In this document: positions 869 to 11,242 of the stretch, one piece after another
How positions within the stretch are numbered: position 1 is the stretch's first letter
Layout: the number at the start of each line of letters is the position of its first letter
Source of the DNA: a virus
Taxonomy: Duplodnaviria; Heunggongvirae; Uroviricota; Caudoviricetes
DNA length: 11,242 nt
Strand: one strand, 5' to 3'
Virus record (IMG/VR): IMGVR_UViG_2657245509_000010
Notes under the pieces: generated by a model
What the model was told of the DNA's origin: nothing
The model's input: only the letters and a program-made list of their open reading frames with translations
Databases searched by the model: none
Translations under genes and position numbers: made by a program

Positions 869-1031
869 CTGTTTTTAGCACTTTTTGCAGTGTGGGTTGT
901 TTAATTAAATCAATGGGTTGCCTTGCTGTGGTGATAAAAGGACATATTTTATCAATTAGTGTTTTTTGCCGTTTCATAATGTTTCAGATTGTTCATTATA
1001 TTTTTGATTATAAACAGATTTGTGATTTTCC

Positions 1032-1100
1032 TTGTTCCAGCTTGTTTCACGTTGTAGCCCTTTGTGCAACGATCGGTGTAGTTAATGGTGTAGTTAATTG
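1032..1100. repeat. Copy 2 of the ~65-bp direct repeat with tandem GGTGTAGTTAAT x2 (1075-1098), directly abutting the integrase start
   Basis: Direct sequence comparison with 808-868. Confidence 0.55.
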
Positions 1101-1120
1101 TGATGACCGGAATCAAAATT

Positions 1121-2350
1121 ATGAGCAGAGCACTTAACAAACTGAGCGATACACAGCTGAGGAAAATCAACGGCACACCCGCCCAAAAAACAGCCTTTCT
1201 TAATGACGGTGGAAACCTGAGCGTCAGGCATTCAACCAGTGGCCTTTTAACCTGGTATTTCACTTACAGGGCCGGAACGGGAAGGGGGGCACCACCGGAA
1301 CGCATTAAGCTGGGAAATTATCCTGATCTGAGCCTGAAATCAGCCAGGGAAAAAGCCGCCCAGTGTCGCGCATGGCTGGCAGAGGGGAAAAATCCACGTC
1401 ATGAGCTTAATTACACCGTACAGGAAGCGTTAAAGCCGGTAACGGTTGGCGATGCGCTCACCTACTGGCTTGAGTCGTACGCAAAGGAAAACCGCGTGGA
1501 TTATGCCGCCCTGAAAAAGCGCCTTAATAATCACGTAATACAGCACATTGGTGCTATGCCGCTGGATAAATGCGAGCTACGGCACTGGCTGGCCTGTTTT
1601 GACCAGGTGGCAAAGCGAACGCCTGTTACTGCCGGATTCTTGCTACAGACGTGCAAACAGGCGCTTAAGTTCTGCCGGAGGCGGCGCTATGCAATCAGCA
1701 ACGTTCTTGATGATATGAGTGTGGCGGACGTTGGGAAAAAACCGGATATAAGCGAGCGTGTCTTAAGCACCAAAGAACTGGGCGAATTATTGCAGGCACT
1801 GGACAAAAAAATATTCTCCCCCTACTACATCGCGTTAATCCGCCTCCTGATTGTGTTCGGATGCCGGACGGTAGAACTGAGGTTATCGGAGATCAGCGAG
1901 TGGGATTTTACCGAAATGCTCTGGACCGTTCCGAAGGAGCACAGCAAAACGAAGGTAGCCATATTCCGGCCTATACCGGAAGCAATACTGCCGTTCATCA
2001 CGCAGCTGGTGGAGCAGAACAGGCACACGGGCTTATTGCTGGGGGAAGTGAAACAGGAGGCCAGCGTATCGCAGTATGGAAGATTAGCGCACAGGAGGCT
2101 TAATCACCCTCACTGGTCACTGCATGACATCCGGCGCACCTTTACAACCATGCTGAACGATTTAGGCGTTGATCCGCATGTCGTGGAGCAGCTTACAGGC
2201 CACCAGATGCCAGGAATGCAGCGAGTTTATAATCATTCCCGTTATCTGGATGCGAAACGCAATGCGCTGGATATGTGGACGGAGCGGTTAGGGATACTGG
2301 CGGGAACACATGAAAACGTAACCACGCTACCAGTAGCCAGAAGAAAATAA
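1121..2350 (+). CDS. int: Tyrosine site-specific integrase with arm-binding N-terminal domain (P4/PICI-type)
   Basis: N-terminus 'LSDTQLRKINGTPAQKTAFLNDGGNLSV...GNYPDLSLKSAREKAAQCRAWLAEGKNP' fits the arm-DNA-binding domain pattern; C-terminus has 'HDIRRTF' and 'RVYNHSRYL' as in catalytic tyrosine recombinase domains. Start is ambiguous (ATG at 1100, 1103 or 1121); the end is firm. Confidence 0.9.
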   Translation: MSRALNKLSDTQLRKINGTPAQKTAFLNDGGNLSVRHSTSGLLTWYFTYRAGTGRGAPPERIKLGNYPDLSLKSAREKAAQCRAWLAEGKNPRHELNYTVQEALKPVTVGDALTYWLESYAKENRVDYAALKKRLNNHVIQHIGAMPLDKCELRHWLACFDQVAKRTPVTAGFLLQTCKQALKFCRRRRYAISNVLDDMSVADVGKKPDISERVLSTKELGELLQALDKKIFSPYYIALIRLLIVFGCRTVELRLSEISEWDFTEMLWTVPKEHSKTKVAIFRPIPEAILPFITQLVEQNRHTGLLLGEVKQEASVSQYGRLAHRRLNHPHWSLHDIRRTFTTMLNDLGVDPHVVEQLTGHQMPGMQRVYNHSRYLDAKRNALDMWTERLGILAGTHENVTTLPVARRK

Positions 2351-2367
2351 TTTTTTTCGTGTTTTTT

Positions 2368-2383
2368 CAGTATGCGCATACTG
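2368..2383. repeat. Perfect 16-bp palindrome CAGTATGCGCATACTG in the int-alpA intergenic region
   Basis: Read directly. Confidence 0.6.
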
Positions 2384-2404
2384 GATATGCGAACAGATAC
2401 AACG

Positions 2405-2443
2405 TGCAACAATGAGCAACAATGTGGAACAACTACGAACAAG
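2405..2443. repeat. Short tandem direct repeats (GCAACAATG x2, then GAACAAC and GAACAAG); candidate protein-binding array
   Basis: Read directly in the 364-bp int-alpA intergenic region. Confidence 0.5.
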
Positions 2444-2714
2444 AGGCGAAAAAGCGTACGGATTTATAAGTAGCTGATTTTTAATGTGTTACTGGTTTTT
2501 TATACACTAGCGAATCACTCTTTAAAGAGCGAGAAAAAAGGCATGGAACAATATTTTATGCCTTTGTATTAACATGAATTTAAAAGATTTTATTCTTACT
2601 TTTTCATTTTCTGTAAATCATACATCCTCAGTATTTGCCATTCATCACTCTAGCGGGAACAATACGACACAATAAGACACCTGATGACTCTTTAAGAAAC
2701 GAAAGGGGGCAATA

Positions 2715-2903
2715 GTGTTAAGCACTGATCGGTTTATACGTGAAAAAGAATGCGAAAAACTAACCGGCCTTAGCCGTACGTGTCGCTACCGCCTGGAAAA
2801 GGCCGGACAATTCCCATCACGTCGTAAACTTGGCGGTCGTTCCGTTGGCTGGTCTTTATCCGAGGTTCTGGCCTGGAAGGATAGCTGCAAGGCAGTTCAT
2901 TAA
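2715..2903 (+). CDS. alpA: AlpA-family transcriptional regulator / excisionase-like protein (GTG start)
   Basis: 'LTGLSRTCRYRLEKAGQFPSRRKLGGRSVGWSLSEVLAWK' matches the AlpA/phage-excisionase HTH pattern; strong SD 'agggggc' 5 nt upstream of the GTG; located just after int as in Gram-negative PICIs. Confidence 0.85.
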   Translation: MLSTDRFIREKECEKLTGLSRTCRYRLEKAGQFPSRRKLGGRSVGWSLSEVLAWKDSCKAVH

Positions 2904-3049
2904 TCACGCTGGCGGCACACAGCCGCCACACATCAATCATCTGAACACAGAGCTATAACCATGAAGATTGAATATACGCCAGAACGTGGGCGGGGATTCG
3001 TTCGCCCTGGTGAGACTGGAAAACCACAAAATTGGGGTTTTTCAGGCAT

Positions 3050-3078
3050 AAAAAAAGCGGCCCCGAAATGGAGCCGCC
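3050..3078 (-). terminator. Probable rho-independent terminator for minus-strand transcripts (GC stem then T7 on the minus strand)
   Basis: Plus strand 'aaaaaaagcggccccgaaatggagccgc'; on the minus strand a gcggc/gccgc stem is followed by TTTTTTT. Confidence 0.45.
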
Positions 3079-3172
3079 TTTCTGAACAGATAACCCGCTG
3101 CGCCTTATGTGTATATGATCCCAAACATAAGCACGGGGATGATAGCCGCTATCAGGCTGGTGGGCAATGCTA

Positions 3173-3361
3173 TCAGTCTGGTTCAGTTCGTTGCCATACC
3201 TGCAATGGGCGCGTTTCCCTGTACTCTTTAAGGAATTGCTCAAGGGCAAAAGCACATGGCGCGAATCTTTCTGATTCATGCTCTATCTTTCTGCGCCGTC
3301 TTTTCCGTGCCGGTGATAATGTTTTGGTCAATTCTTTATCGGTCATTGTGTTGTCCTGCAT
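3173..3361 (-). CDS. Hypothetical small basic protein, downstream of the RHH gene on the minus strand (start uncertain; possibly ATG at 3346)
   Basis: ORF-track ORF; arginine/lysine-rich segment 'ARKRRRRK'; no strong SD, so low confidence. Confidence 0.3.
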   Translation of the reverse strand: MQDNTMTDKELTKTLSPARKRRRRKIEHESERFAPCAFALEQFLKEYRETRPLQVWQRTEPD

Positions 3362-3403
3362 AGCAATGCGCCGTAATACCTCACACCACGGCGCTGATAG
3401 TTT

Positions 3404-3577
3404 TTATCCTTTGGGTTCTATGCCGCGTTGCTGTAATTCTTTGCGGAGAACGCGTTTAATCCAAGTGGCTAAAGATGTGTCGCCATCGGCCTTAGCAGCT
3501 TCTTCTAGCTGCGCTCTGAAGTCTTCCGGTAATCGCATTTGGTATGGAGGCGAACGTTTTTCTAATGGTGTTGACAT
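3404..3577 (-). CDS. Arc/MetJ-type ribbon-helix-helix transcriptional repressor (57 aa); not in the ORF track
   Basis: Minus-strand translation 'MSTPLEKRSPPYQMRLPEDFRAQLEEAAKADGDTSLATWIKRVLRKELQQRGIEPKG' fits the Arc-family pattern (beta-strand 'YQMRLP', then two helices). Divergent from the rightward operon, with palindromic operators at its 5' end. Confidence 0.75.
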   Translation of the reverse strand: MSTPLEKRSPPYQMRLPEDFRAQLEEAAKADGDTSLATWIKRVLRKELQQRGIEPKG

Positions 3578-3645
3578 GGTAATTACCCTTTATTGCTATA
3601 CCTACATGGTAATTACCATTGTACTTGCCATTACACAAAAATCAA
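3571..3645. promoter_or_regulatory. Divergent control region with two copies of the palindrome GGTAATTACC (3578-3587, 3608-3617) and a minus-strand promoter (-10 TACAAT 3618-3623, -35 TTGATT 3640-3645); a perfect TTGACA on the plus strand at 3571-3576
   Basis: Both palindromes are preceded by 'ACAT' and are 30 bp centre-to-centre. One abuts the RHH start codon and the other abuts the putative -10, the classic autorepressor layout. The plus-strand -10 is weak. Confidence 0.6.
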
Positions 3646-3707
3646 CGCCCCGCAGTGCTGGGAACACATACGGGGCGTCTAACCAACAACGTAAACTAGG
3701 AGCCGTT

Positions 3708-3905
3708 ATGGTTGCCGTAAATCATATACCACACCTTGTACACACACAAACGGCCTTTGTGTGGCGTTTTCTGGCACTGAGTGCCGGAGAATCTCAAATC
3801 ATCCACGTAACCGCCTGGACGGAACGCGAAGCGCGTAACCGTTGCCCGTCCGGTTGTGTTGCTGTATTTGCCGCCCGTATTCGTCAGGAGGTGCGCCATG
3901 ATTAA
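3708..3905 (+). CDS. Icd-like (host cell division inhibitor-like) small protein, 65 aa
   Basis: 'FVWRFLALSAGESQIIHVTAWTEREARNRC...VFAARIRQEV' resembles the Icd-like proteins of enterobacterial P4-like and PICI elements (from memory). RBS 'aggag' 6 nt upstream. It is the true gene inside the chimeric 314-aa track ORF. Confidence 0.6.
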   Translation: MVAVNHIPHLVHTQTAFVWRFLALSAGESQIIHVTAWTEREARNRCPSGCVAVFAARIRQEVRHD

Positions 3906-4110
3906 TCTGTCACTTACTGACCTTAACCGCATTCAGTTTCGTGAGAAATTCACAGGGCAGCTACTGGTCAATGTGGATAAAGGTCGCGTGGTGTGTAATT
4001 ACCACTTACCAGATGAAGCAATTGTCGCCACAAGGGAATCATTACAGGAAATCACAAAACGTGCCGGAATGATTAACACGAATATTCAGGGGATGCTTTA
4101 TGCACAATAA
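3898..4110 (+). CDS. Hypothetical protein (70 aa)
   Basis: ATG overlaps the stop of the upstream gene (translational coupling); no family recognised. Confidence 0.5.
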   Translation: MINLSLTDLNRIQFREKFTGQLLVNVDKGRVVCNYHLPDEAIVATRESLQEITKRAGMINTNIQGMLYAQ

Positions 4111-4564
4111 AACCACACCGGACGCAGCCGCCGAAGCCATCAAAACGCTGATGCACGCGCTGATTGATATTTCTGTTATCGCGGACAGGGCACATAAGCA
4201 CGCCACCAGCGAAACAGAATATGCCGGTGCTTTCGTTCCTCACTCACTGGCTGTCATGCAATTTAGTGCTGATACGGCGCTGAATGAGGCCAAAGCTATC
4301 CTGATTGCTGATTGTGAAAATGGGGGGGTTATGCGTGATGATCGTTTTAATTCCCTGAAACAGGAATTTTCCGGCGTTCCTGATGATGCGGCTGATGCGC
4401 TTTCGTCAATGCCAGAACTTATTAGAGCGGCTTTTTTCTTACTTTCCACGAGAGAATATAAATCAACGGGGCTTGATGTACTGAATATCGCCGCCGATTA
4501 TGCGGAATATGTGGCAGAGGCGCGTTATAGAAGAAAATTTCCTGAGGATGTAAGCCATGCGTGA
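4100..4564 (+). CDS. Hypothetical protein (154 aa)
   Basis: Start overlaps the preceding stop; no recognisable motifs. Confidence 0.6.
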   Translation: MHNKTTPDAAAEAIKTLMHALIDISVIADRAHKHATSETEYAGAFVPHSLAVMQFSADTALNEAKAILIADCENGGVMRDDRFNSLKQEFSGVPDDAADALSSMPELIRAAFFLLSTREYKSTGLDVLNIAADYAEYVAEARYRRKFPEDVSHA

Positions 4565-4790
4565 TATTTACCACCAAACAATAGACCGCGCATTTCTTGC
4601 ACTTTCTCACAGTGAAAACATGATGGAAATATTGCGCATATGGCTTGAAACACTTGGCGACAATGAACGCGACAAACAAAAATCAAGAATTGCCACGGCA
4701 TTAATAACGCTTCTTGAGCCTGTAATAATGGAACTGCAAGAAATAGATCTATTGCACGACAGATATAAAGAACAGCACACCGGAGAATAA
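4557..4790 (+). CDS. Hypothetical protein (77 aa)
   Basis: 8-nt overlap with the upstream gene; SD 'gagga' upstream. Confidence 0.55.
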   Translation: MRDIYHQTIDRAFLALSHSENMMEILRIWLETLGDNERDKQKSRIATALITLLEPVIMELQEIDLLHDRYKEQHTGE

Positions 4791-4795
4791 AAATA

Positions 4796-5095
4796 ATGAA
4801 ACTTAAATATTCTGGCTTAACTGCCAGTGGCAACACTCACCCTAAATTTACGCGCGGTGATATTTACCGCGACCAGTACGGCGGCACGGTAATGATTAAG
4901 GGCGTGGAAGAACGGCGCGTAACCTACCGCCGTGAAGGTTACGAATATGATTGCGTGATGCCTGTTTATCAGTTCCGGCGTGATTTTTCTCTGGTACAGA
5001 CCGCGCCGCATAACGTGCCCACCAGCAACGCCAGGGCACGGGCAAACATCCAGAAGCTGAAAACCATGGTTAACGGATTCAGGGGCAAGAAATGA
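4796..5095 (+). CDS. Hypothetical protein (99 aa)
   Basis: SD 'ggaga' about 10 nt upstream; stop overlaps the start of the replication ATPase gene. Confidence 0.6.
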   Translation: MKLKYSGLTASGNTHPKFTRGDIYRDQYGGTVMIKGVEERRVTYRREGYEYDCVMPVYQFRRDFSLVQTAPHNVPTSNARARANIQKLKTMVNGFRGKK

Positions 5096-6492
5096 AAAGC
5101 GCACCGAACTTAAAAAAACAGCCTTACGACAAGATGACCGAAGTCATTATTTTTGCGGGTAGTGATGCCTGGGCACATGCGAAACAGTGGCAGGAACAGG
5201 ACGGGCGACTGGCTGGCGATAATGTGCCTCCCGTTGTGCTGGCTGATGATCAACTGGATGAACTGGCAGAACTGAGAATCATCGACGAGGGGCGCTATTG
5301 TGTCCGGCTGTACAAGGCAGGCCACATCAGGCCATCAAATATTAATGCCATTGCGCACAAGCTGGCGGCGGCGGGTGTAACTGATGCGAATTATTACCCC
5401 GAAGGGATGCACAGCCATATGCGGGAGAACTGGCGCGAATACCTGGAACGGGTGCGCGGGAAAGAGCCGGCGGAAGAAAAAAACCACCAGCGAAAAACCA
5501 CGCTACCGATGAGCGTTGGATCTACCGGATACGACACGCAACTGGATTACGTGGTTAAGGGGATTATTCCGGCGGTATCGCTATGCAGCATATACGGGGC
5601 TAGCGGGTCCTATAAATCATTCCTTGCCGGATCGTGGGCGTGCCATGTTGCCACTGGTCGCCAGTGGGGAGGCCGCAGGGTTGCACATGGTGCGGTTCTC
5701 TATGTGGTTGGTGAAGGCGGTATAGGTGTTCCGCGTCGTGTAAAAGCCTGGGAGGTTGTGCACGATGAGCAGGTGAAAAATCTGTATCTGGTAAACCGCC
5801 CCATCTTTCCGGCTGCCCCGCTTGATGTTGATGAAATGGTTATCGCTGCCCGTCAGGTGGAGCGGGAAACGGGTAAACCTGTACGCATGATTATTCTGGA
5901 TACGCTGGCGCGTTGCTTTGGTGGGAATGATGAAAATGATTCCCGTGATATGGGGGCGTTTATCCGTGGTTGTGACGAACTGAAACGACGCACAGGGGCC
6001 ACGGTGCTGGTGGTTCACCATTCCGGCAAGGATGAGACGAAAGGCGCGCGCGGTTCCAGTGCATTTCGTGCTTCGCTGGATGCTGAATACCGGATACGCA
6101 GGGAGGACGCAGGAAGCGAAGCGCTGGTTATCTCATGCACCAAAATGAAGGACGCGGAGGAACTCAAAGAAGCCGCATATGACTTACGCGTGGTGGAGCT
6201 TTTTACCGACGCTGACGGTGAATTAATCACGTCGCTGGTGGTGGTGGATGATCCGCGCCCTCCTGTTGAACTGGAGCGCATCGAGGAGGCAGGGAACAAG
6301 ACGGAAAACCATACCGCGCTATGGGGGTGCATCCGTTCACGCACACAGAACGGCGACAAGTGCACGATCCCGCTGTTACGTGATGACATGAAAAAGCTGG
6401 GGTATGAAATGAAAAACTTCCGGCGCTGGCTGTACAAGCTGGAAAAAGATGGGGTTATTCGTATCGATGGGGATGATGTAGCGCCGCTATAA
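5092..6492 (+). CDS. RepA/DnaB-like RecA-fold replication ATPase (satellite replicase-helicase) with a probable C-terminal winged-helix domain
   Basis: P-loop-like 'GASGSYKS', Walker-B-like 'MIILDTLARCFGG', and 'VLVVHHSGKDETKGARGSSAFRASLDAEYRIRRE' typical of RepA-like helicases; C-terminus 'WLYKLEKDGVIRI' looks wHTH-like; an iteron array lies immediately downstream. Confidence 0.8.
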   Translation: MKSAPNLKKQPYDKMTEVIIFAGSDAWAHAKQWQEQDGRLAGDNVPPVVLADDQLDELAELRIIDEGRYCVRLYKAGHIRPSNINAIAHKLAAAGVTDANYYPEGMHSHMRENWREYLERVRGKEPAEEKNHQRKTTLPMSVGSTGYDTQLDYVVKGIIPAVSLCSIYGASGSYKSFLAGSWACHVATGRQWGGRRVAHGAVLYVVGEGGIGVPRRVKAWEVVHDEQVKNLYLVNRPIFPAAPLDVDEMVIAARQVERETGKPVRMIILDTLARCFGGNDENDSRDMGAFIRGCDELKRRTGATVLVVHHSGKDETKGARGSSAFRASLDAEYRIRREDAGSEALVISCTKMKDAEELKEAAYDLRVVELFTDADGELITSLVVVDDPRPPVELERIEEAGNKTENHTALWGCIRSRTQNGDKCTIPLLRDDMKKLGYEMKNFRRWLYKLEKDGVIRIDGDDVAPL

Positions 6493-6684
6493 AAGTGAGG
6501 AGCAAAAGCGAGGGGGATAGAAAGAGGGCCAAAATTAGCCCGCTCTCCCTCACTTTTCGACCTGTATACATCCTCAAAAGTGAGGGGTAAAAAAATACTT
6601 ATGAAACACACACATAGAAAAACCGAAAATCCCAACTGCGACGAAGTGAGACGCTTGAAAAAGTGAGGCGAAAAAGTGAGAGGT
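6491..6684. repeat. Iteron array (at least six copies of AAGTGAG(G/A) in both orientations); putative replication origin
   Basis: Copies at about 6493, 6549 (inverted), 6579, 6643, 6660 and 6674, immediately 3' of the replication ATPase gene. Confidence 0.65.
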
Positions 6685-6692
6685 TGCGAGAA

Positions 6693-6944
6693 ATGACCCA
6701 AAAACGCAGAGACAGAACAGAGCCAAAATATAAAGCGTTAGACATGACTGAGCACACCTTAAAGGTGGCAATCAGAACGATAGACCGCCACACGCGGGAA
6801 GGATACGCGAAGGAACATCCCGACCTGATAAGCGCATTCATGACCACGGCGGCGGCAAACTTTGCCACGCTGACAGAACGGGAGATTGCCGAAGCGGAAC
6901 AGGTAACAACCATCAACGTTAAAACCGGAGAGGTGGAATTATGA
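6693..6944 (+). CDS. Hypothetical protein (83 aa; alternative GTG start at 6663)
   Basis: ATG with SD 'gagagg'; the upstream in-frame extension would overlap the iterons. Confidence 0.5.
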   Translation: MTQKRRDRTEPKYKALDMTEHTLKVAIRTIDRHTREGYAKEHPDLISAFMTTAAANFATLTEREIAEAEQVTTINVKTGEVEL

Positions 6945-7351
6945 CGGCACAGATAGCCGCTTACGGGCGGCTGGTGGACGACCCGCAGGTAAAACAGACC
7001 AGCAAGGGCACACCGATGACGCTGGCGCGTATGGCGGTATCTTTGCCATGCAGCCAGGCACAGGACGGACAGGCGACGTTATGGTTATCGGTCATCGCAT
7101 TTGGCAAACAGGCCGGCTTCCTGGCTAAACATCAAAAAGGCGATGTTGCCAGCGTATCCGGCACGATGCAGGTAAGCCAGTGGACCGGACAGAACGGAGA
7201 AACGCGGCAGGGCTGGCAGGTTATCGCAGACAGCGTAATCAGTGCCCGCGCGGCACGTCCAGGCGGGAACAGACGCAAAACCACAGGCACACAGGGTAAT
7301 CAGCCACCAGCGGGAGGCGATGACCCTTACGGTGATGATATTTCGTTCTGA
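6941..7351 (+). CDS. ssb: Single-stranded DNA-binding protein (SSB-like OB fold with acidic C-terminal tip)
   Basis: Glycine/proline-rich linker and C-terminal 'DDPYGDDISF', comparable to E. coli SSB '...DDDIPF'; OB-fold-like N-terminus; start overlaps the upstream stop. Confidence 0.75.
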   Translation: MTAQIAAYGRLVDDPQVKQTSKGTPMTLARMAVSLPCSQAQDGQATLWLSVIAFGKQAGFLAKHQKGDVASVSGTMQVSQWTGQNGETRQGWQVIADSVISARAARPGGNRRKTTGTQGNQPPAGGDDPYGDDISF

Positions 7352-7361
7352 GGGGGTGACG

Positions 7362-7634
7362 ATGGTACATGACCGCATAGCGGAGGAACTGGAGGCGAAA
7401 GGCTTTTACCGGAGGGCGGCGGCGCGATGGGGTGAAGTCATGCAGCTGGTGGAGACAGACAAGGAACGGCATCACATCACGATGCGACGGCTGGAATGTT
7501 CAAGGAAGGCACAGAGGGCACCGGAGCCGCCGGATAATTTCGGAGACCTGAAAAAGGCAGTCGATCGCACTTATGCCGAAATGGGTATAGATGGTGCTGG
7601 TGATGAAATATGGCGCAATTACCAGGACAGCTAA
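7362..7634 (+). CDS. PerC-family transcriptional regulator-like protein (90 aa)
   Basis: 'AEELEAKGFYRRAAARWGEVM' matches the PerC/Pch hallmark (LExKG-W/Y-RRAA-xW). The true start is the ATG at 7362 with SD 'gaggggg'; the longer track ORF (7242-) would overlap ssb. Confidence 0.6.
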   Translation: MVHDRIAEELEAKGFYRRAAARWGEVMQLVETDKERHHITMRRLECSRKAQRAPEPPDNFGDLKKAVDRTYAEMGIDGAGDEIWRNYQDS

Positions 7635-7640
7635 TCAAAC

Positions 7641-7664
7641 AGCCGGAGAAATCCGGCTTTTTTT
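7641..7664 (+). terminator. Rho-independent terminator (GCCGGA-GAAA-TCCGGC then T7)
   Basis: Stem-loop plus T-run directly after the perC-like stop. Confidence 0.8.
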
Positions 7665-7760
7665 GCACCAGTTGAAACGGTATGGCGCATTACCGGGTTT
7701 TCGTCACGGTCAGGCATAGTTACTATCTGAAACAAACAGACACAACAGAGGAAAAAAACA

Positions 7761-7985
7761 ATGCCGATGAAATTTGATGAGATATTAAAACAGCGTGATA
7801 AATACCATGCTGACAACATGGAGACGATGAGCATCAATGATTACCGCGCATTCCTGGAGACGGGCGCACTGATTGAAAAGGATCAGCATGGTTTTGTGAG
7901 ATGTGCTCTATCCGGTGAAATGCTGGCGGTAAATCCTGAACAGATAGATGCATTGATAGAATTTCTGAAAGAGATCAGAGACTGA
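7761..7985 (+). CDS. Hypothetical protein (74 aa), an isolated transcription unit
   Basis: SD 'gagga' upstream; flanked by terminators at 7641-7664 and 8005-8075. Confidence 0.55.
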   Translation: MPMKFDEILKQRDKYHADNMETMSINDYRAFLETGALIEKDQHGFVRCALSGEMLAVNPEQIDALIEFLKEIRD

Positions 7986-8004
7986 GCCAGCACACAGCAC
8001 ACAT

Positions 8005-8027
8005 AGCCGGAGCAATCCGGCTTTTTT
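8005..8027 (+). terminator. Rho-independent terminator (GCCGGA-GCAA-TCCGGC then T6)
   Basis: Variant of the same hairpin as at 7641 and 10278. Confidence 0.75.
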
Positions 8028-8033
8028 GCGCCC

Positions 8034-8075
8034 AAAAAAAGCCCGATAAGGTCAGAGGGTTCTTATCGGGCTTTT
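8034..8075. terminator. Second hairpin, possibly bidirectional (A7, 10-bp stem GCCCGATAAG/CTTATCGGGC, T4)
   Basis: Read directly; A-run upstream and T-run downstream. Confidence 0.6.
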
Positions 8076-8148
8076 GCATATGAGGTTTTTGGATGCACTG
8101 GCGTTCGTGATCGGGATAATCATTTCATAATTTGCAACATAACTCAAT

Positions 8149-8201
8149 ATCATTGCATAAAATGCAATTCTGATTATAATCAGGACTGGATAAACATCCA
8201 G
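8149..8201 (+). promoter_or_regulatory. Putative promoter of the capsid operon (-35 TTGCAT 8153-8158, 16-bp spacer, -10 TATAAT 8175-8180) embedded in three consecutive palindromes
   Basis: Palindromes ATTGCAT-AAA-ATGCAAT, CTGATTATAATCAG (contains the -10) and CTGGAT-AAAC-ATCCAG; first promoter-like signal after the double terminator. Confidence 0.55.
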
Positions 8202-8236
8202 TTATGATTTTTTTAGTCGAAGAGGAATTTCTTACT

Positions 8237-8443
8237 ATGGCTGAAGAGAAAAAAAGCGGTGTTTCGGTGTACATAAGCCCCGAAATCGTGGAGGTGCTCA
8301 AGCAGCGCCACAAAAAAAACTATGAAGCTGGCGTTGCGGCTGGACTGGATCCGCTGATGACGCCGGAGCCGTCGATAGGTTCACTTGTACGCTCTTATTT
8401 ACTTGCGGCGCTTGGGATGCATAAAAATTATGGGGGTGAATAA
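8237..8443 (+). CDS. Hypothetical protein (68 aa) translationally coupled to the major capsid gene (alternative start 8204)
   Basis: Stop and start overlap as TAATG at 8441-8445; position corresponds to where scaffold or head-accessory genes sit in head operons. Confidence 0.5.
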   Translation: MAEEKKSGVSVYISPEIVEVLKQRHKKNYEAGVAAGLDPLMTPEPSIGSLVRSYLLAALGMHKNYGGE

Positions 8444-9498
8444 TGGCAGGCAAAGCAACGGCACTTAACACTAACCAGCTTTTCATGTACCTGAATCGCG
8501 GGGATATTGCGGATTTTAAATTCAGCCCTCTGTTTACCACGCTGTTTTTCCCGAACGTGGCGACATTCAGCACGCAAAACATCATGCTGGATACCCTGGA
8601 CATTGAAGAAGTCACCATGTCGGCGTTTTGTTCGCCTATGGTGGGTAGCCAGGTTCAGCGCGATAAAGGGTACGAAACCAGCACAATCAAACCTGGCTAC
8701 ATGAAGCCAAAGCACGAAATCGATCCAACGAAAACCATCATGCGCATGGCTGGAGAAGATCCGGCACAGCTTAACGACCCTACCTATCGCCGTATGCGCC
8801 TGATTACTGGCAACATGCGCCGCCAGATAAACGCCATTAAGGCACGCGTGGAATGGCTGGCGGTGAATGCGGTAACGACCGGAAAAAACATCATTGAGGG
8901 CGAAGGCATAGAACGCTATGAAATCGACTGGAAAATACCGGAAAACTGCATCATAGAGCAGGCCAAGGGTAAAAAATGGTCCGAGCAGGATAAAGACATG
9001 CACGACCCAATCTATGACATCGAGCTTTATGCTGATCAGGCTGGTTGCCCCGCAAACGTCATGATTATGGGCGCTGAGGTATGGCGCACATTACGCAGCT
9101 TTAAAAAATTCCGTGAGCTGTACGATCTTTCCCGTGGTTCAGAATCCGCCGCCGAACTGGCCTGTAAAAACCTGGGCGAAGTGGTGAGCTTTAAAGGCTA
9201 TCTTGGTGATCTGGCCCTTATCGTCTATTCCGGCAAATACACTGACAGCGATGGTACCGAAAAATATTTCCTTGAGCCTGATTTGCTGGTCCTGGGTAAC
9301 ACCAACAATAAAGGGCTGGTGGCCTATGGTGCGATAATGGATCAGGAAGCGGTAAGAACGGGCGCAACACAAAACATGTTTTACCCGAAAAACTGGATTG
9401 AGGACGGCGATCCGGCGATTGAGTACGTGCAGACACACAGTGCACCGCAGCCGGTACCGGCAGATATTCGCAAATTTGTTACCGTCAAAATTGGTTAA
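8443..9498 (+). CDS. Major capsid protein, lambda gpE-like (HK97 fold family)
   Basis: Blocks 'KFSPLFTTLFF', 'PGYMKPKHEIDP', 'DPTYRRMRL', 'FRSFK', 'YPKNWIEDGDPAIEY' align with lambda gpE 'KFDPLFLRLFF', 'PGYVKPKHEVNP', 'DPAYRRRRI', 'FRSFK', 'YPKNWVTTGDPAREF' (recalled sequence). 351 aa against about 341 aa for gpE. Confidence 0.9.
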   Translation: MAGKATALNTNQLFMYLNRGDIADFKFSPLFTTLFFPNVATFSTQNIMLDTLDIEEVTMSAFCSPMVGSQVQRDKGYETSTIKPGYMKPKHEIDPTKTIMRMAGEDPAQLNDPTYRRMRLITGNMRRQINAIKARVEWLAVNAVTTGKNIIEGEGIERYEIDWKIPENCIIEQAKGKKWSEQDKDMHDPIYDIELYADQAGCPANVMIMGAEVWRTLRSFKKFRELYDLSRGSESAAELACKNLGEVVSFKGYLGDLALIVYSGKYTDSDGTEKYFLEPDLLVLGNTNNKGLVAYGAIMDQEAVRTGATQNMFYPKNWIEDGDPAIEYVQTHSAPQPVPADIRKFVTVKIG

Positions 9499-9510
9499 CG
9501 GGGGGATTCT

Positions 9511-9846
9511 ATGGACACTCCATACATTGAGTTATTTGCAGGCAGTCAGCAGGTATCCACGACGTTGGTACATTTTGCCGCTGATGCTGGCGTTATTCAG
9601 GAATTTACCCCGCTGATGCTGGCAGACAATGGCGAGTTTAAGCCGTGGGATGGTCAGGAATCTGGCAAGGCTGTTTATCTGACCTCGTACCCTGTGGACA
9701 CGTCAAAGCAGAAATCAGCACAGTGTTACAAGACGGGGATATTCAATATTGCCGCCGTTAACTGGCCTGAGAGCGTCGACACCGATGCGAAAAAATGCGC
9801 CGCCTTTGCGGGTTCCGGCGTATCCGTTCAGCCGCTGGCCCGATAA
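9511..9846 (+). CDS. Head decoration protein, lambda gpD-like
   Basis: 'TPLMLADNGEFKPWDG...KKCAAFAGSGVSVQ' aligns with gpD 'TPLMLDTSSRKLVAWDG...KKRTAFAGTAISIV'; 111 aa against 110 aa. Confidence 0.85.
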   Translation: MDTPYIELFAGSQQVSTTLVHFAADAGVIQEFTPLMLADNGEFKPWDGQESGKAVYLTSYPVDTSKQKSAQCYKTGIFNIAAVNWPESVDTDAKKCAAFAGSGVSVQPLAR

Positions 9847-9858
9847 GCAGGGGGAACG

Positions 9859-10272
9859 ATGGCAACGAATGAAAGCATCATGACGCTACCGCTGGCGAGT
9901 AAATTTAAAGTCGAAGCGCGGGCAATGGCTGACAGAGGTTTATCAACCTATGAGGCCGTATATCAACTAAACAAACTGGAAGAGCAGGACAAGCCGTGCG
10001 CTGATGCGATTATGGCGCTTCATGAGCATAAAGACTATCAGCCGCTGTTGCGTGCAATGGCAAACGTGCCTTGTATCGATGTTGGTACGGCTAAAAGCAT
10101 CCTTAGCATGACCATAGAGCAGGAACGTCCGAAGGTTGCGCCGGAACTTACCGCAGCCTTTGAAAACTTTATGGACATGCACAGCCCGCAAGCCGTATCA
10201 GCTGGCATGGCATACGATGGCAGAAACCAGGGCGATGACGGCGACATCGATCGCATACTGAAAACCATCTGA
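9859..10272 (+). CDS. Hypothetical protein (137 aa) between the decoration gene and cos
   Basis: Good SD 'aggggga'; no resemblance to lambda FI/FII by eye. Confidence 0.6.
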   Translation: MATNESIMTLPLASKFKVEARAMADRGLSTYEAVYQLNKLEEQDKPCADAIMALHEHKDYQPLLRAMANVPCIDVGTAKSILSMTIEQERPKVAPELTAAFENFMDMHSPQAVSAGMAYDGRNQGDDGDIDRILKTI

Positions 10273-10277
10273 GACAA

Positions 10278-10300
10278 GGCCGGAGAAATCCGGCTTTTTT
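10278..10300 (+). terminator. Rho-independent terminator (GCCGGA-GAAA-TCCGGC then T6), third copy of the hairpin family
   Basis: Immediately 5' of cos. Confidence 0.8.
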
Positions 10301-10368
10301 ACGGGTCCTTCCTGGAATTATGGCCCGTTACGGGGCGGCGACCTCGCGGATTTTCGCTATTTATGAGC
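10301..10368 (+). other. cos site (cosQ-cosN), lambda-like; predicted 12-nt cohesive end GGGCGGCGACCT at 10333-10344
   Basis: 'acgggtccttcctggaattatggcccgttacg|gggcggcgacct|cgcggattttcgctatttatga' against lambda 'ACGGGTCCTTTCCGGTGATCCGACAGGTTACG|GGGCGGCGACCT|CGCGGGTTTTCGCTATTTATGA' (from memory); located about 135 bp upstream of the Nu1-like gene. Confidence 0.85.
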
Positions 10369-10438
10369 CTTTTCAGGGTGGTGGTGGTGGTTTTGTTGTT
10401 TGATCTATCTTTATGAATGAAAAGGGAAAGATGCAAGC

Positions 10439-10476
10439 AATACACCAACCTGAAGCAGTAATTAAGTTGGTGTATT
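10439..10476 (+). promoter_or_regulatory. 11-bp inverted repeat AATACACCAAC-N16-GTTGGTGTATT abutting the terS start codon; candidate element-specific cosB R sites or translational control hairpin
   Basis: Read directly; sits where lambda has the inverted R2/R1 Nu1-binding sites before Nu1. Confidence 0.5.
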
Positions 10477-10477
10477 A

Positions 10478-11020
10478 ATGAAATCTCATCTGATGAACAA
10501 AAAAAACATGGCGAAAAGCTGCCGTGTAAGTGCGACAGCGTTCGACAAGTGGGGAGTAACTCCCGTTGAGCGTAAAGGCCGTGAGGCGTTTTATGATGTT
10601 GCCAGCGTGATAGAAAATAGGGTTAACAATGCAATTAGCCAGCTTATAAACGACAAAGGCGAGATTGACGATGATGAACTTTTACGAGTCAGGATCAGAT
10701 TACTGACAGCACAGGCAGAGGCGCAGGAACTTAAAAACGATCGCGATCGCGGTGACGTGATTGATACTGAGTTTTGCCTGTACGCGCTTTCAAAGCTGGC
10801 GAGTCAGATTTCATCAATCATGGACAGCCTCCCGCTTACTATGCAAAGGAGCTTCCCACAGATTACCCCCGCCATGCTGGACAGGCTTAAAAGGGAAGTG
10901 GTTAAAGCCTGTAATGCCAGTGCCAGAGTTGCCGACAACCTCCCACAGATACTGGCTGATTACTTGAAAGAAACAACCGGAAACGTACCGGAAAAGTTGC
11001 TACAGAAGAAAGGCGAGTAA
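10478..11020 (+). CDS. Terminase small subunit, lambda Nu1-like
   Basis: 'LTAQAEAQELKNDRDRGDVIDTEFCLYALSKLASQISSIMDSLPLTMQRSFP' aligns with Nu1 'LTRAQADAQELKNARDSAEVVETAFCTFVLSRIAGEIASILDGLPLSVQRRFP'; N-terminus 'NKKNMAKSCRVSATAFDKW' against 'NKKQLADIFGASIRTIQNW'. 180 aa against 181 aa. Start may be the ATG at 10493. Confidence 0.9.
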   Translation: MKSHLMNKKNMAKSCRVSATAFDKWGVTPVERKGREAFYDVASVIENRVNNAISQLINDKGEIDDDELLRVRIRLLTAQAEAQELKNDRDRGDVIDTEFCLYALSKLASQISSIMDSLPLTMQRSFPQITPAMLDRLKREVVKACNASARVADNLPQILADYLKETTGNVPEKLLQKKGE

Positions 11021-11039
11021 CAGACGCGCAATTATTGAA

Positions 11040-11242
11040 CAAAAATGAGAAAGGATCTGATAATGGCATTTTCTGGCTAAAATGCCTCGTGTCAGATCCT
11101 TTCTTTTTTTAATATTTTCATTGTTAAACAGTCTGTTACAGAGAAGAAGATCGGATCTGACTTTTGCCGGAAAATTCTCATAAACAGATAAAAACCGCGA
11201 GGTCGCCGCCCCGTAACGGGCCATAATTCCAGGAAGGACCCG
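11040..11242 (-). other. Second cos site in inverted orientation (cosN reverse complement at 11200-11211) with a full-length lambda-like cosB arm; cosQ part is the terminal repeat
   Basis: Reverse complement reads 'cgggtccttcctggaattatggcccgttacg|gggcggcgacct|cgcggtttttatctgtttatgagaattttccgg...tcttcttc...', tracking the lambda left end 'CGCGGGTTTTCGCTATTTATGAAAATTTTCCGG...TTCTTCTTCG' further than the 10301 cos does. Confidence 0.8.
11048..11110. terminator. Nested inverted repeat AGAAAGGATCTGA...TCAGATCCTTTCT followed by T7; likely terS terminator and, on the other strand, lambda-like cosB R2/R1-type sites
   Basis: 13-bp arms at 11048-11060 and 11093-11105 with an inner GGCATTTT/AAAATGCC hairpin; the reverse complement aligns with the lambda cosB region 'GAAAAGAAAGGAAACGACAGG...CCTCTGTCGTTTCCTTTCT'. 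Confidence 0.6.

Follow-up and report, generated by a model that had tools for sequence, protein, structure and literature searches.

What does a PerC-family gene do on a phage satellite of Escherichia coli: does it act on the virulence genes of its host, on the satellite's own capsid operon, or on something else? The locus considered here lies in a DNA of 11,242 nucleotides (the window). A preliminary description of its open reading frame (ORF) at 7362-7634 had put forward a PerC-family regulator carried by a satellite, which might couple satellite induction to virulence through the LEE or control the capsid operon promoter downstream.

Over its full length the window matches, at 100% identity, a chromosomal island that many E. 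coli O157:H7 genomes (EC4115 and TW14359 among them) carry between roxA (ycfD) and phoQ, the site of O-island 51 (OI-51, CP-933C, Sp7), a phage-inducible chromosomal island (PICI). Its genes run in the order int, alpA, Icd-like genes, a DUF4222 gene (the RgdR homologue), a RepA-type helicase gene, a small ORF and ssb, followed by the PerC gene, a small ORF, genes for a major capsid protein, a head decoration protein, an unknown protein and the terminase small subunit (TerS), and a last small ORF. Pfam matches identify the lambda E-like capsid protein, the D-like decoration protein and the Nu1-like TerS, and these are the only morphogenesis genes found on the island. The presence of int, alpA, a replication protein with an iteron origin and an att site, the length of 11.2 kb (about 10-15 kb for PICIs of the EcCICFT073/OI-51 type) and the absence of tail and lysis genes are those of a PICI, and with these neighbours and the roxA-phoQ site the gene is indeed located on a satellite, as had been described. 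Helper-phage induction and high-frequency transfer have been published for EcCICFT073 and for the capsid-forming PICI (cf-PICI) EcCIEDL933, not for the present variant (PMC6092414, PMC6739421, bioRxiv 10.1101/2022.09.08.507074).

Relative to the island the window is circularly permuted: its bases 1-949 are the chromosomal right end, and 940-11242 start at the left end. The 10-bp att core (GGACATATTT) sits at the junction (940-949), 32 nt are common to both window ends (11211-11242), and the window looks like an excised or circularised form of the island. An Rfam scan of the whole window gave no match at E<=0.1. The gene under study and the features upstream and immediately downstream of it are as follows.

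6491-6692, no strand assigned: iteron/AT-rich PICI-type origin, with three direct copies and an inverted copy of AAAAGTGAGG and an AT-rich core
6693-6944, plus strand: orf83, ECs_1586 homologue (PGAP annotation; phrog_1231)
6941-7351, plus strand: ssb (Pfam SSB, E 9e-16), immediately upstream of pchE
7351-7356, plus strand: Shine-Dalgarno-like AGGGGG, read from the sequence, a good ribosome-binding site; it overlaps the stop codon of ssb (7349-7351) and leaves 5 nt to the ATG
7362-7634, plus strand: perC/pchE ORF, ATG start, stop codon included, 90 aa
7641-7665, plus strand: strong intrinsic terminator, a GC-rich hairpin (7641-7658) whose 7-bp stem (AGCCGGA/TCCGGCT) encloses a loop of 4 nt, then T7; 7 nt after the pchE stop

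The Pfam PerC profile (PF06069) matches the 90-aa product at E 3.9e-43 with 146.1 bits (gathering score 22.6), residues 1-89 falling on model positions 1-89 of 90, and RefSeq labels the product of 7362-7634 'PerC family transcriptional regulator' (WP_000233304.1). This end-to-end profile match bears out the family assignment of the preliminary description. The protein is 40% identical over its full length to PerC of EPEC E2348/69, encoded on plasmid pMAR2 (E 6e-25). We read the conserved columns from a 39-sequence alignment of the window protein, EPEC PerC and 37 family representatives taken from the output of an exhaustive HMMER search over 1.84 billion cluster representatives; a 59-sequence alignment agrees. 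All invariant or near-invariant columns are kept in the window protein (D4, A7, L10, E11, G14, R17, R18, A19, R22, W23, C46, M74 and G75), and with them the family core L-E-x2-G-x2-R-R-A-x2-R-W, C46 and M-G at 74-75. Because the HMMER search returned only 105 clusters at E<=1e-3, we regard the PerC family as small and enterobacterial.

The reading frame itself is well defined. Between the window and Sakai alleles dN/dS is 0.23 (10 synonymous and 9 non-synonymous changes), which marks 7362-7634 as a selected coding gene and no chance ORF. An in-frame ORF with a GTG start (7242-7634, 130 aa) was considered and rejected, since 110 nt of it would lie within ssb and the family members align from M1 of the 90-aa form; the coordinates 7362-7634 are therefore correct. 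A 42-codon ORF at 7591-7719 (plus strand), a RefSeq hypothetical protein with a frameshifted 'trigger factor' label in another genome, overlaps the 3' end of pchE and crosses the terminator, and is probably a spurious call.

At the equivalent position strain Sakai has ECs_1586, ECs_1587 (ssb), ECs_1588, annotated as 'transcriptional regulator PchE', and ECs_1589. The two genes share the roxA-phoQ site, the place directly after ssb, the order ECs1586 homologue-ssb-pchE-ECs1589 homologue with equal flanking genes, the length of 90 aa and the terminator, and the proteins share 81 of 90 residues without gaps. From this matching position and identity we take the window gene to be an allele of pchE, the sole 'group 3' PerC homologue of O157:H7, although it does not encode the identical protein. 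The nine substitutions (window residue first) are Q28L, H38Q, I39V, R52K, A53P, K64R, A79V, G80S and Q88P, none of which falls at a conserved column. PchE is the name given to the OI-51 PerC homologue in PMC3378721, and the gene is thus already known in substance as the named, experimentally studied pchE, of which the window carries a 90%-identical allele.

The islands around the two alleles differ in their other modules. After pchE and ECs_1589, Sakai and 86-24 carry genes for an HK97-type capsid, protease, portal, connectors, HNH, TerS and TerL, a layout that is the capsid-forming PICI architecture of EcCIEDL933 (bioRxiv 10.1101/2022.09.08.507074); the window was considered as such a cf-PICI and rejected, having a lambda E/D/Nu1-like module where Sakai and 86-24 have the HK97-type one. 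For replication the window has a RepA-type helicase with AAAAGTGAGG iterons, whereas Sakai has a DUF927 primase with TAACCCGCA iterons, and in the alignment the origin region 6491-6692 is not conserved with the Sakai allele, whose iterons are unrelated and matched to the different replication protein. In one slot at a common att site we observed three replication proteins, a RepA/AAA_25 helicase, a DUF927 primase and a 'DNA primase family protein' (slot coordinates compared: window 5092-6492, locus L036 6601-8733, locus L034 5683-7437), and within E. coli the OI-51-type islands show, on this comparison, strong modular mosaicism.

By its place in the sequence, pchE is the last gene of a rightward alpA-replication-ssb gene string. 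No convincing plus-strand intrinsic terminator was seen between alpA and pchE, the terminator at 7641-7665 is the first canonical one on that strand downstream of alpA in the terminator scan, and no sigma-70-like promoter was detected in 6400-8100. The overlap of the Shine-Dalgarno-like element with the ssb stop codon suggests that translation of pchE is probably coupled to that of ssb. In O157:H7 strain PA20, RACE has traced one polycistronic RNA through ECs1586, ECs1587 and pchE, with its start 10 nt before ECs1586 (PMC7369912), and by position this published 5' end maps into the window's origin region (6491-6692). We considered and rejected the RACE-mapped promoter for the window: in the alignment with Sakai it has no counterpart of the -10-like TATATATA block found ahead of ECs1586 there, so that the published Sakai-type promoter is not simply transferable to the window allele. 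A reasonable alternative is that the window pchE would be transcribed by read-through from the replication operon.

What is published on pchE points to effects on the host. Over-expressed pchE represses csgD over 7-fold and csgA over 280-fold, and lowers biofilm formation and HEp-2 adhesion independently of ler (PMC6265319); it also reduces expression of eae, lpfA1 and stpA and increases that of flhDC and fliC as well as motility (PMC7369912). Expression from the integrated island is low and steady, and on SOS induction pchE promoter activity and transcripts drop 2- to 7-fold (PMC7369912). Most of the phenotypes were obtained by over-expression from plasmids, and deletion had slight effects (PMC6265319, PMC7369912). 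The experiments used the Sakai/EDL933-type allele or strain PA20, while 9 of the 90 residues are different in the window allele.

We consider it likely that the window ORF is the pchE allele of an OI-51/Sp7 PICI and a host-directed accessory gene, and no dedicated regulator of the capsid operon. PchE would be the product of a lysogenic-conversion-type accessory gene with low steady expression from the integrated island, going by the 90%-identical Sakai/EDL933-type allele; because the Sakai-type promoter is not conserved in the window, such expression in the integrated state is no more than presumed for the window allele. It would act in trans on host regulons, with csgD/curli, eae, lpfA1 and adhesion going down and flhDC/fliC and motility going up, and would have little or no effect on LEE1, as published for the Sakai/EDL933-type allele.

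The fold of the protein bears on how it could act. An AF2 model of PchE (mean pLDDT 85.5) has helices at residues 5-13, 16-29, 33-50 and 60-74, and the protein is predicted to be all-helical, the first three of the four helices being TPR-like, with no classical DNA-binding fold. A PDB sequence search with PchE gave only chance coiled-coil matches, to PACSIN F-BAR domains at E about 0.01. To our knowledge no PerC or ANR structure has been solved.

Residues 7-52 of PchE align to the whole of the 54-position ANR model NF033650, which 49 of 59 PerC-family members match at E<=0.01 (best 3.2e-7), below the family cut-off. The N-terminal 50 residues are also shared with four PHROG 'transcriptional activator' families. 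ANR proteins are small three-helix anti-activators without DNA-binding activity that bind AraC-type activators and H-NS (PMC4983702, PMC5570504). An ANR assignment calls for a score over the curated cut-off, a size under 10 kDa, three helices only and an AraC/XylS-family activator alongside; PchE scores 20.4 bits against a cut-off of 32 and, at 90 aa, has a fourth helix, and no AraC-family gene is present in the RefSeq annotation of the island (10 island ORFs were also scanned with Pfam). PchE thus resembles the ANR proteins (Aar, Rnr, Cnr) in three predicted helices and in the absence of a DNA-binding motif, and differs from them by an extra linker and the fourth helix (residues 51-90). We take its N-terminal domain to be homologous to ANR, yet PchE itself to be no ANR member.

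The absence of a DNA-binding fold, together with the ANR-homologous TPR-like helices, leads us to propose a protein-interaction mechanism, in which PchE would remodel H-NS/StpA/Hha nucleoprotein complexes or titrate a partner regulator. PchA could serve as a precedent for nucleoprotein remodelling and Aar for partner titration: PchA activates LEE1 only by relieving silencing by H-NS/StpA/Hha/YdgT (PMC4764244), and Aar, a protein of three helices, binds AggR and H-NS but not DNA (PMC5570504, PMC4983702). PchA associates with DNA in vivo and H-NS was not co-precipitated with it, competitive DNA association being the mechanism favoured by Fukui et al. (PMC4764244), and for this reason a protein-protein mechanism is something that we infer. 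For work on Pch and PerC proteins, the family-wide relation to ANR and the predicted TPR-like N-terminal domain would favour a mechanism through protein interaction.

EPEC PerC (pMAR2/pEAF perABC) and the EHEC prophage proteins PchA/B/C have the Pfam family and all conserved residues in common with PchE, and the action of PchE on H-NS-silenced promoters is probably of one kind with theirs. They differ in their effects: activation of LEE1, the activity after which the family is named, is a property of PerC and PchABC but reportedly not of PchE, whose effect on adhesion is the opposite one (PMC6265319, PMC7369912). They also differ in context, PerC and Pch being encoded in a plasmid operon with the AraC-type PerA or on lambdoid prophages and the window gene in a PICI replication operon. 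Gram-negative PICIs with PerC variants were noted in 2018 (PMC6092414), and in 2025 a LEE1-silencing PICI PerC homologue was published, with its weak ANR resemblance remarked (PMC11773190). This protein, EcCIMP1_025 of the PICI EcCIMP1, is likewise PICI-borne (about 40% identity per PMC11773190) and silences LEE1 in Citrobacter rodentium (PMC11773190), an activity unreported for PchE.

We collected 30 PerC loci with an 11-sequence alignment from one-genome-per-species contigs of many Enterobacterales genera, among them Escherichia albertii, E. ruysiae, Atlantibacter, Kluyvera, Shimwellia, Enterobacter, Klebsiella, Pantoea, Erwinia, Lonsdalea and Chimaeribacter. In at least 13 of the 30, perC comes directly after an ssb homologue or a short way behind it; an integrase gene lies 8-9.5 kb upstream on the same strand in at least 11, alpA and rgdR homologues are frequent, and in two more loci a zinc-ribbon/Toprim/DUF927 primase is encoded just before perC. 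We count about 19-21 of some 28 informative loci as satellite-like, and the remainder adjoin pgaAB, a YscJ/FliF-type gene, a fimbrial usher operon or tnaAB, or lie with perB on pEAF. PchE has matches at E<=1e-3 in 7 of 50,697 phage records, against 138 plasmid records.

The genes that follow perC in other genera are variable and include a lipoprotein gene, a ~1000-aa tape-measure-like ORF and small conserved ORFs. In satellite-like islands of Enterobacter, Pantoea, Erwinia, Lonsdalea and Leclercia, perC is followed by the lipoprotein gene, two small conserved ORFs and an ORF of ~900-1100 aa. This last (L011 9984-12983; L017-L022) is, from a look at its sequence, a candidate tape-measure protein and would be an unusual PICI cargo. 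Some islands have an ORF of 158-180 aa between ssb and perC (L004 9462-9998; L019 9535-10011; L005), which we suspect to be ProQ/FinO-like.

This distribution could also mean that PerC is primarily a gene of the satellite life cycle, working in counter-silencing of the island or in interference with helper-phage or host regulators, with its effects on host adhesion and motility secondary. In the 19-21 satellite-like loci perC ends an int-alpA-(rgdR)-primase/helicase-ssb string, 8-9.5 kb from int and on the same strand, as the terminal gene of an operon that AlpA is thought to switch on, and bona fide phage genomes are almost without perC, as the seven phage records show. We nevertheless find such a primary role unlikely. 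The gene is absent from an otherwise intact-looking sister island (L034), and its presence varies among EcCIMP1-like elements (PMC11773190); pchE is expressed uninduced and drops on SOS induction (PMC7369912); and the family members near fimbrial, T3SS/flagellar or pga loci, or with perA on pEAF, fit host-directed regulators. The PICI literature consulted describes no role of perC in induction, packaging or interference, and the name 'PerC' does not occur in the Rpp study.

A broader form of this idea joins the ANR relation to the distribution: the PerC family would be an extended ANR branch native to the replication operon (int-alpA-primase-ssb-perC) of pan-Enterobacterales satellites, would primarily serve the satellite by modulating H-NS-type silencing or a partner regulator, and would have given rise to PerC and PchABC as later exaptations. 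We assign this reading a low probability because perC is absent from otherwise intact sister islands.

The suggestion that the satellite PerC homologue activates the LEE (ler), coupling satellite induction to virulence, fares worse, and we regard it as highly improbable. It draws on family membership, EPEC PerC and PchA/B/C being proteins that do activate LEE1 (PMC4764244), on a rise of ler of about 2-fold in PA20 under pchE over-expression (PMC7369912), and on the gene layout, in which, with no strong plus-strand terminator between alpA and pchE and no sigma-70-like promoter of its own, read-through or a rise in copy number on induction could raise PchE. Published tests on the sister allele contradict activation of ler: only the group 1 Pch proteins (A, B and C) were essential for ler/espA expression and adherence, those of groups 2 and 3 being dispensable (Iyoda and Watanabe 2004, as cited in PMC6265319), and LEE1-lacZ fusions were unaffected by PICI-borne PerC-like genes (Porter 2005, as cited in PMC11773190). 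PchE moreover lowers eae and adhesion (PMC7369912), and the PICI PerC homologue EcCIMP1_025 silences LEE1 (PMC11773190). Against the coupling to induction, pchE promoter activity and transcripts fall, not rise, on SOS induction (2- to 7-fold; PMC7369912), and in EDL933 the island does not seem to be induced by the prophages that the strain carries (cf-PICI preprint, bioRxiv 10.1101/2022.09.08.507074).

The window also encodes a DUF4222 protein (4796-5095, plus strand, 99 aa) with an RGD motif (R20-G21-D22) that is 81% identical to Sakai ECs1581. ECs1581 is RgdR, an experimentally proven positive regulator of the LEE and type III secretion (T3S) encoded by OI-51 (PMC3378721). If the satellite touches the LEE, the RgdR homologue rather than pchE is the documented route. 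A PerC-family match on an E. coli satellite is thus not to be read as a LEE activator; the LEE activator is its RgdR neighbour, and the experimentally studied pchE allele has the opposite effect on adhesion and leaves LEE1 essentially untouched.

The second proposal of the preliminary description, control of the capsid operon promoter, depends on what lies between pchE and the capsid genes. Three features occupy this interval beyond the first terminator.

7761-7985, plus strand: orf74, ECs_1589 homologue (phrog_1957), function unknown, travelling with pchE
8000-8027, plus strand: second copy of the terminator element, 28 nt, 89% identical, from the repeat and terminator scans, marking the end of orf74
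8037-8075, no strand assigned: third hairpin, AAAAGCCCGATAAG / CTTATCGGGCTTTT, an inverted repeat with 14-nt arms that are 100% complementary

The third hairpin is bidirectional and terminator-like and stands between the perC cassette and the capsid promoter. orf74 is present alongside pchE in the window, Sakai and 86-24, and in 17 of 19 IMG/VR loci that bear the window pchE allele; both genes are absent in L034. Window and 86-24 are near-identical from the pchE stop to the second terminator and then diverge completely, and in L034 the terminator element comes directly after ssb and alignment with the window resumes at the third hairpin. From this terminator-bounded pattern of match and divergence, pchE and orf74 behave as a small terminator-bounded cassette that recombines among island variants. 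For PICI work it may be of note that perC stays last in the replication operon in different genera and yet, within a cassette bounded by terminators, is exchanged independently of the packaging module.

The 28-nt element, AGCCGGAG[A/C]AATCCGGC followed by a T-run, occurs at 7636-7663, where it ends pchE, and at 8000-8027, where it ends orf74. In L034, which is without pchE and orf74, it occurs at 8421-8470 and ends ssb. These 28-nt repeats may be the recombination points at which the perC-orf74 cassette is inserted or deleted.

The predicted capsid-operon promoter (TTGCAT-N16-TATAAT, 8153-8180, plus strand) lies 520 nt downstream of pchE, and this proximity, with two promoter palindromes that look like operator sites for some further factor, is what speaks for its regulation by PchE, the least probable of the readings considered and one that we all but discount. 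Three terminator hairpins and one gene intervene. Of 19 IMG/VR contigs in which the 5' end of pchE is of the window type, the E-type module occurs in at least 14 and the HK97 cf-type, with a 100% identical PchE, in 2, so that identical PchE precedes a lambda E-type or an unrelated HK97 cf-PICI capsid module, and the regions upstream of these modules have no similarity. L034 (strain GN02050, same integration site) keeps the promoter, palindromes, leader hairpin and E-type capsid operon and has neither perC nor orf74. In the 30 other-genus loci no homologues of the window capsid, decoration or TerS proteins were detected in the flanking DNA examined (up to 10 kb on each side of perC), and the predicted fold of PchE has no DNA-binding domain. 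The intervening terminators, the module swaps, L034 and the other-genus loci together disfavour PerC control of the 8153-8180 promoter, and the comparative evidence argues against an obligate link between pchE and this promoter, action in trans aside.

The two palindromes, ATTGCATAAAATGCAAT (8152-8168) and CTGATTATAATCAG (8170-8183), are perfect and overlap the 8153-8180 promoter. Between the promoter and the PGAP start of orf79 (8237), the leader has a terminator-like hairpin at 8184-8203 and a T-run. This order of promoter, terminator and gene (8152-8236) resembles a lambdoid PR'-tR' late unit and is conserved in L034; by analogy, and speculatively, a helper antiterminator might allow read-through of the capsid leader.
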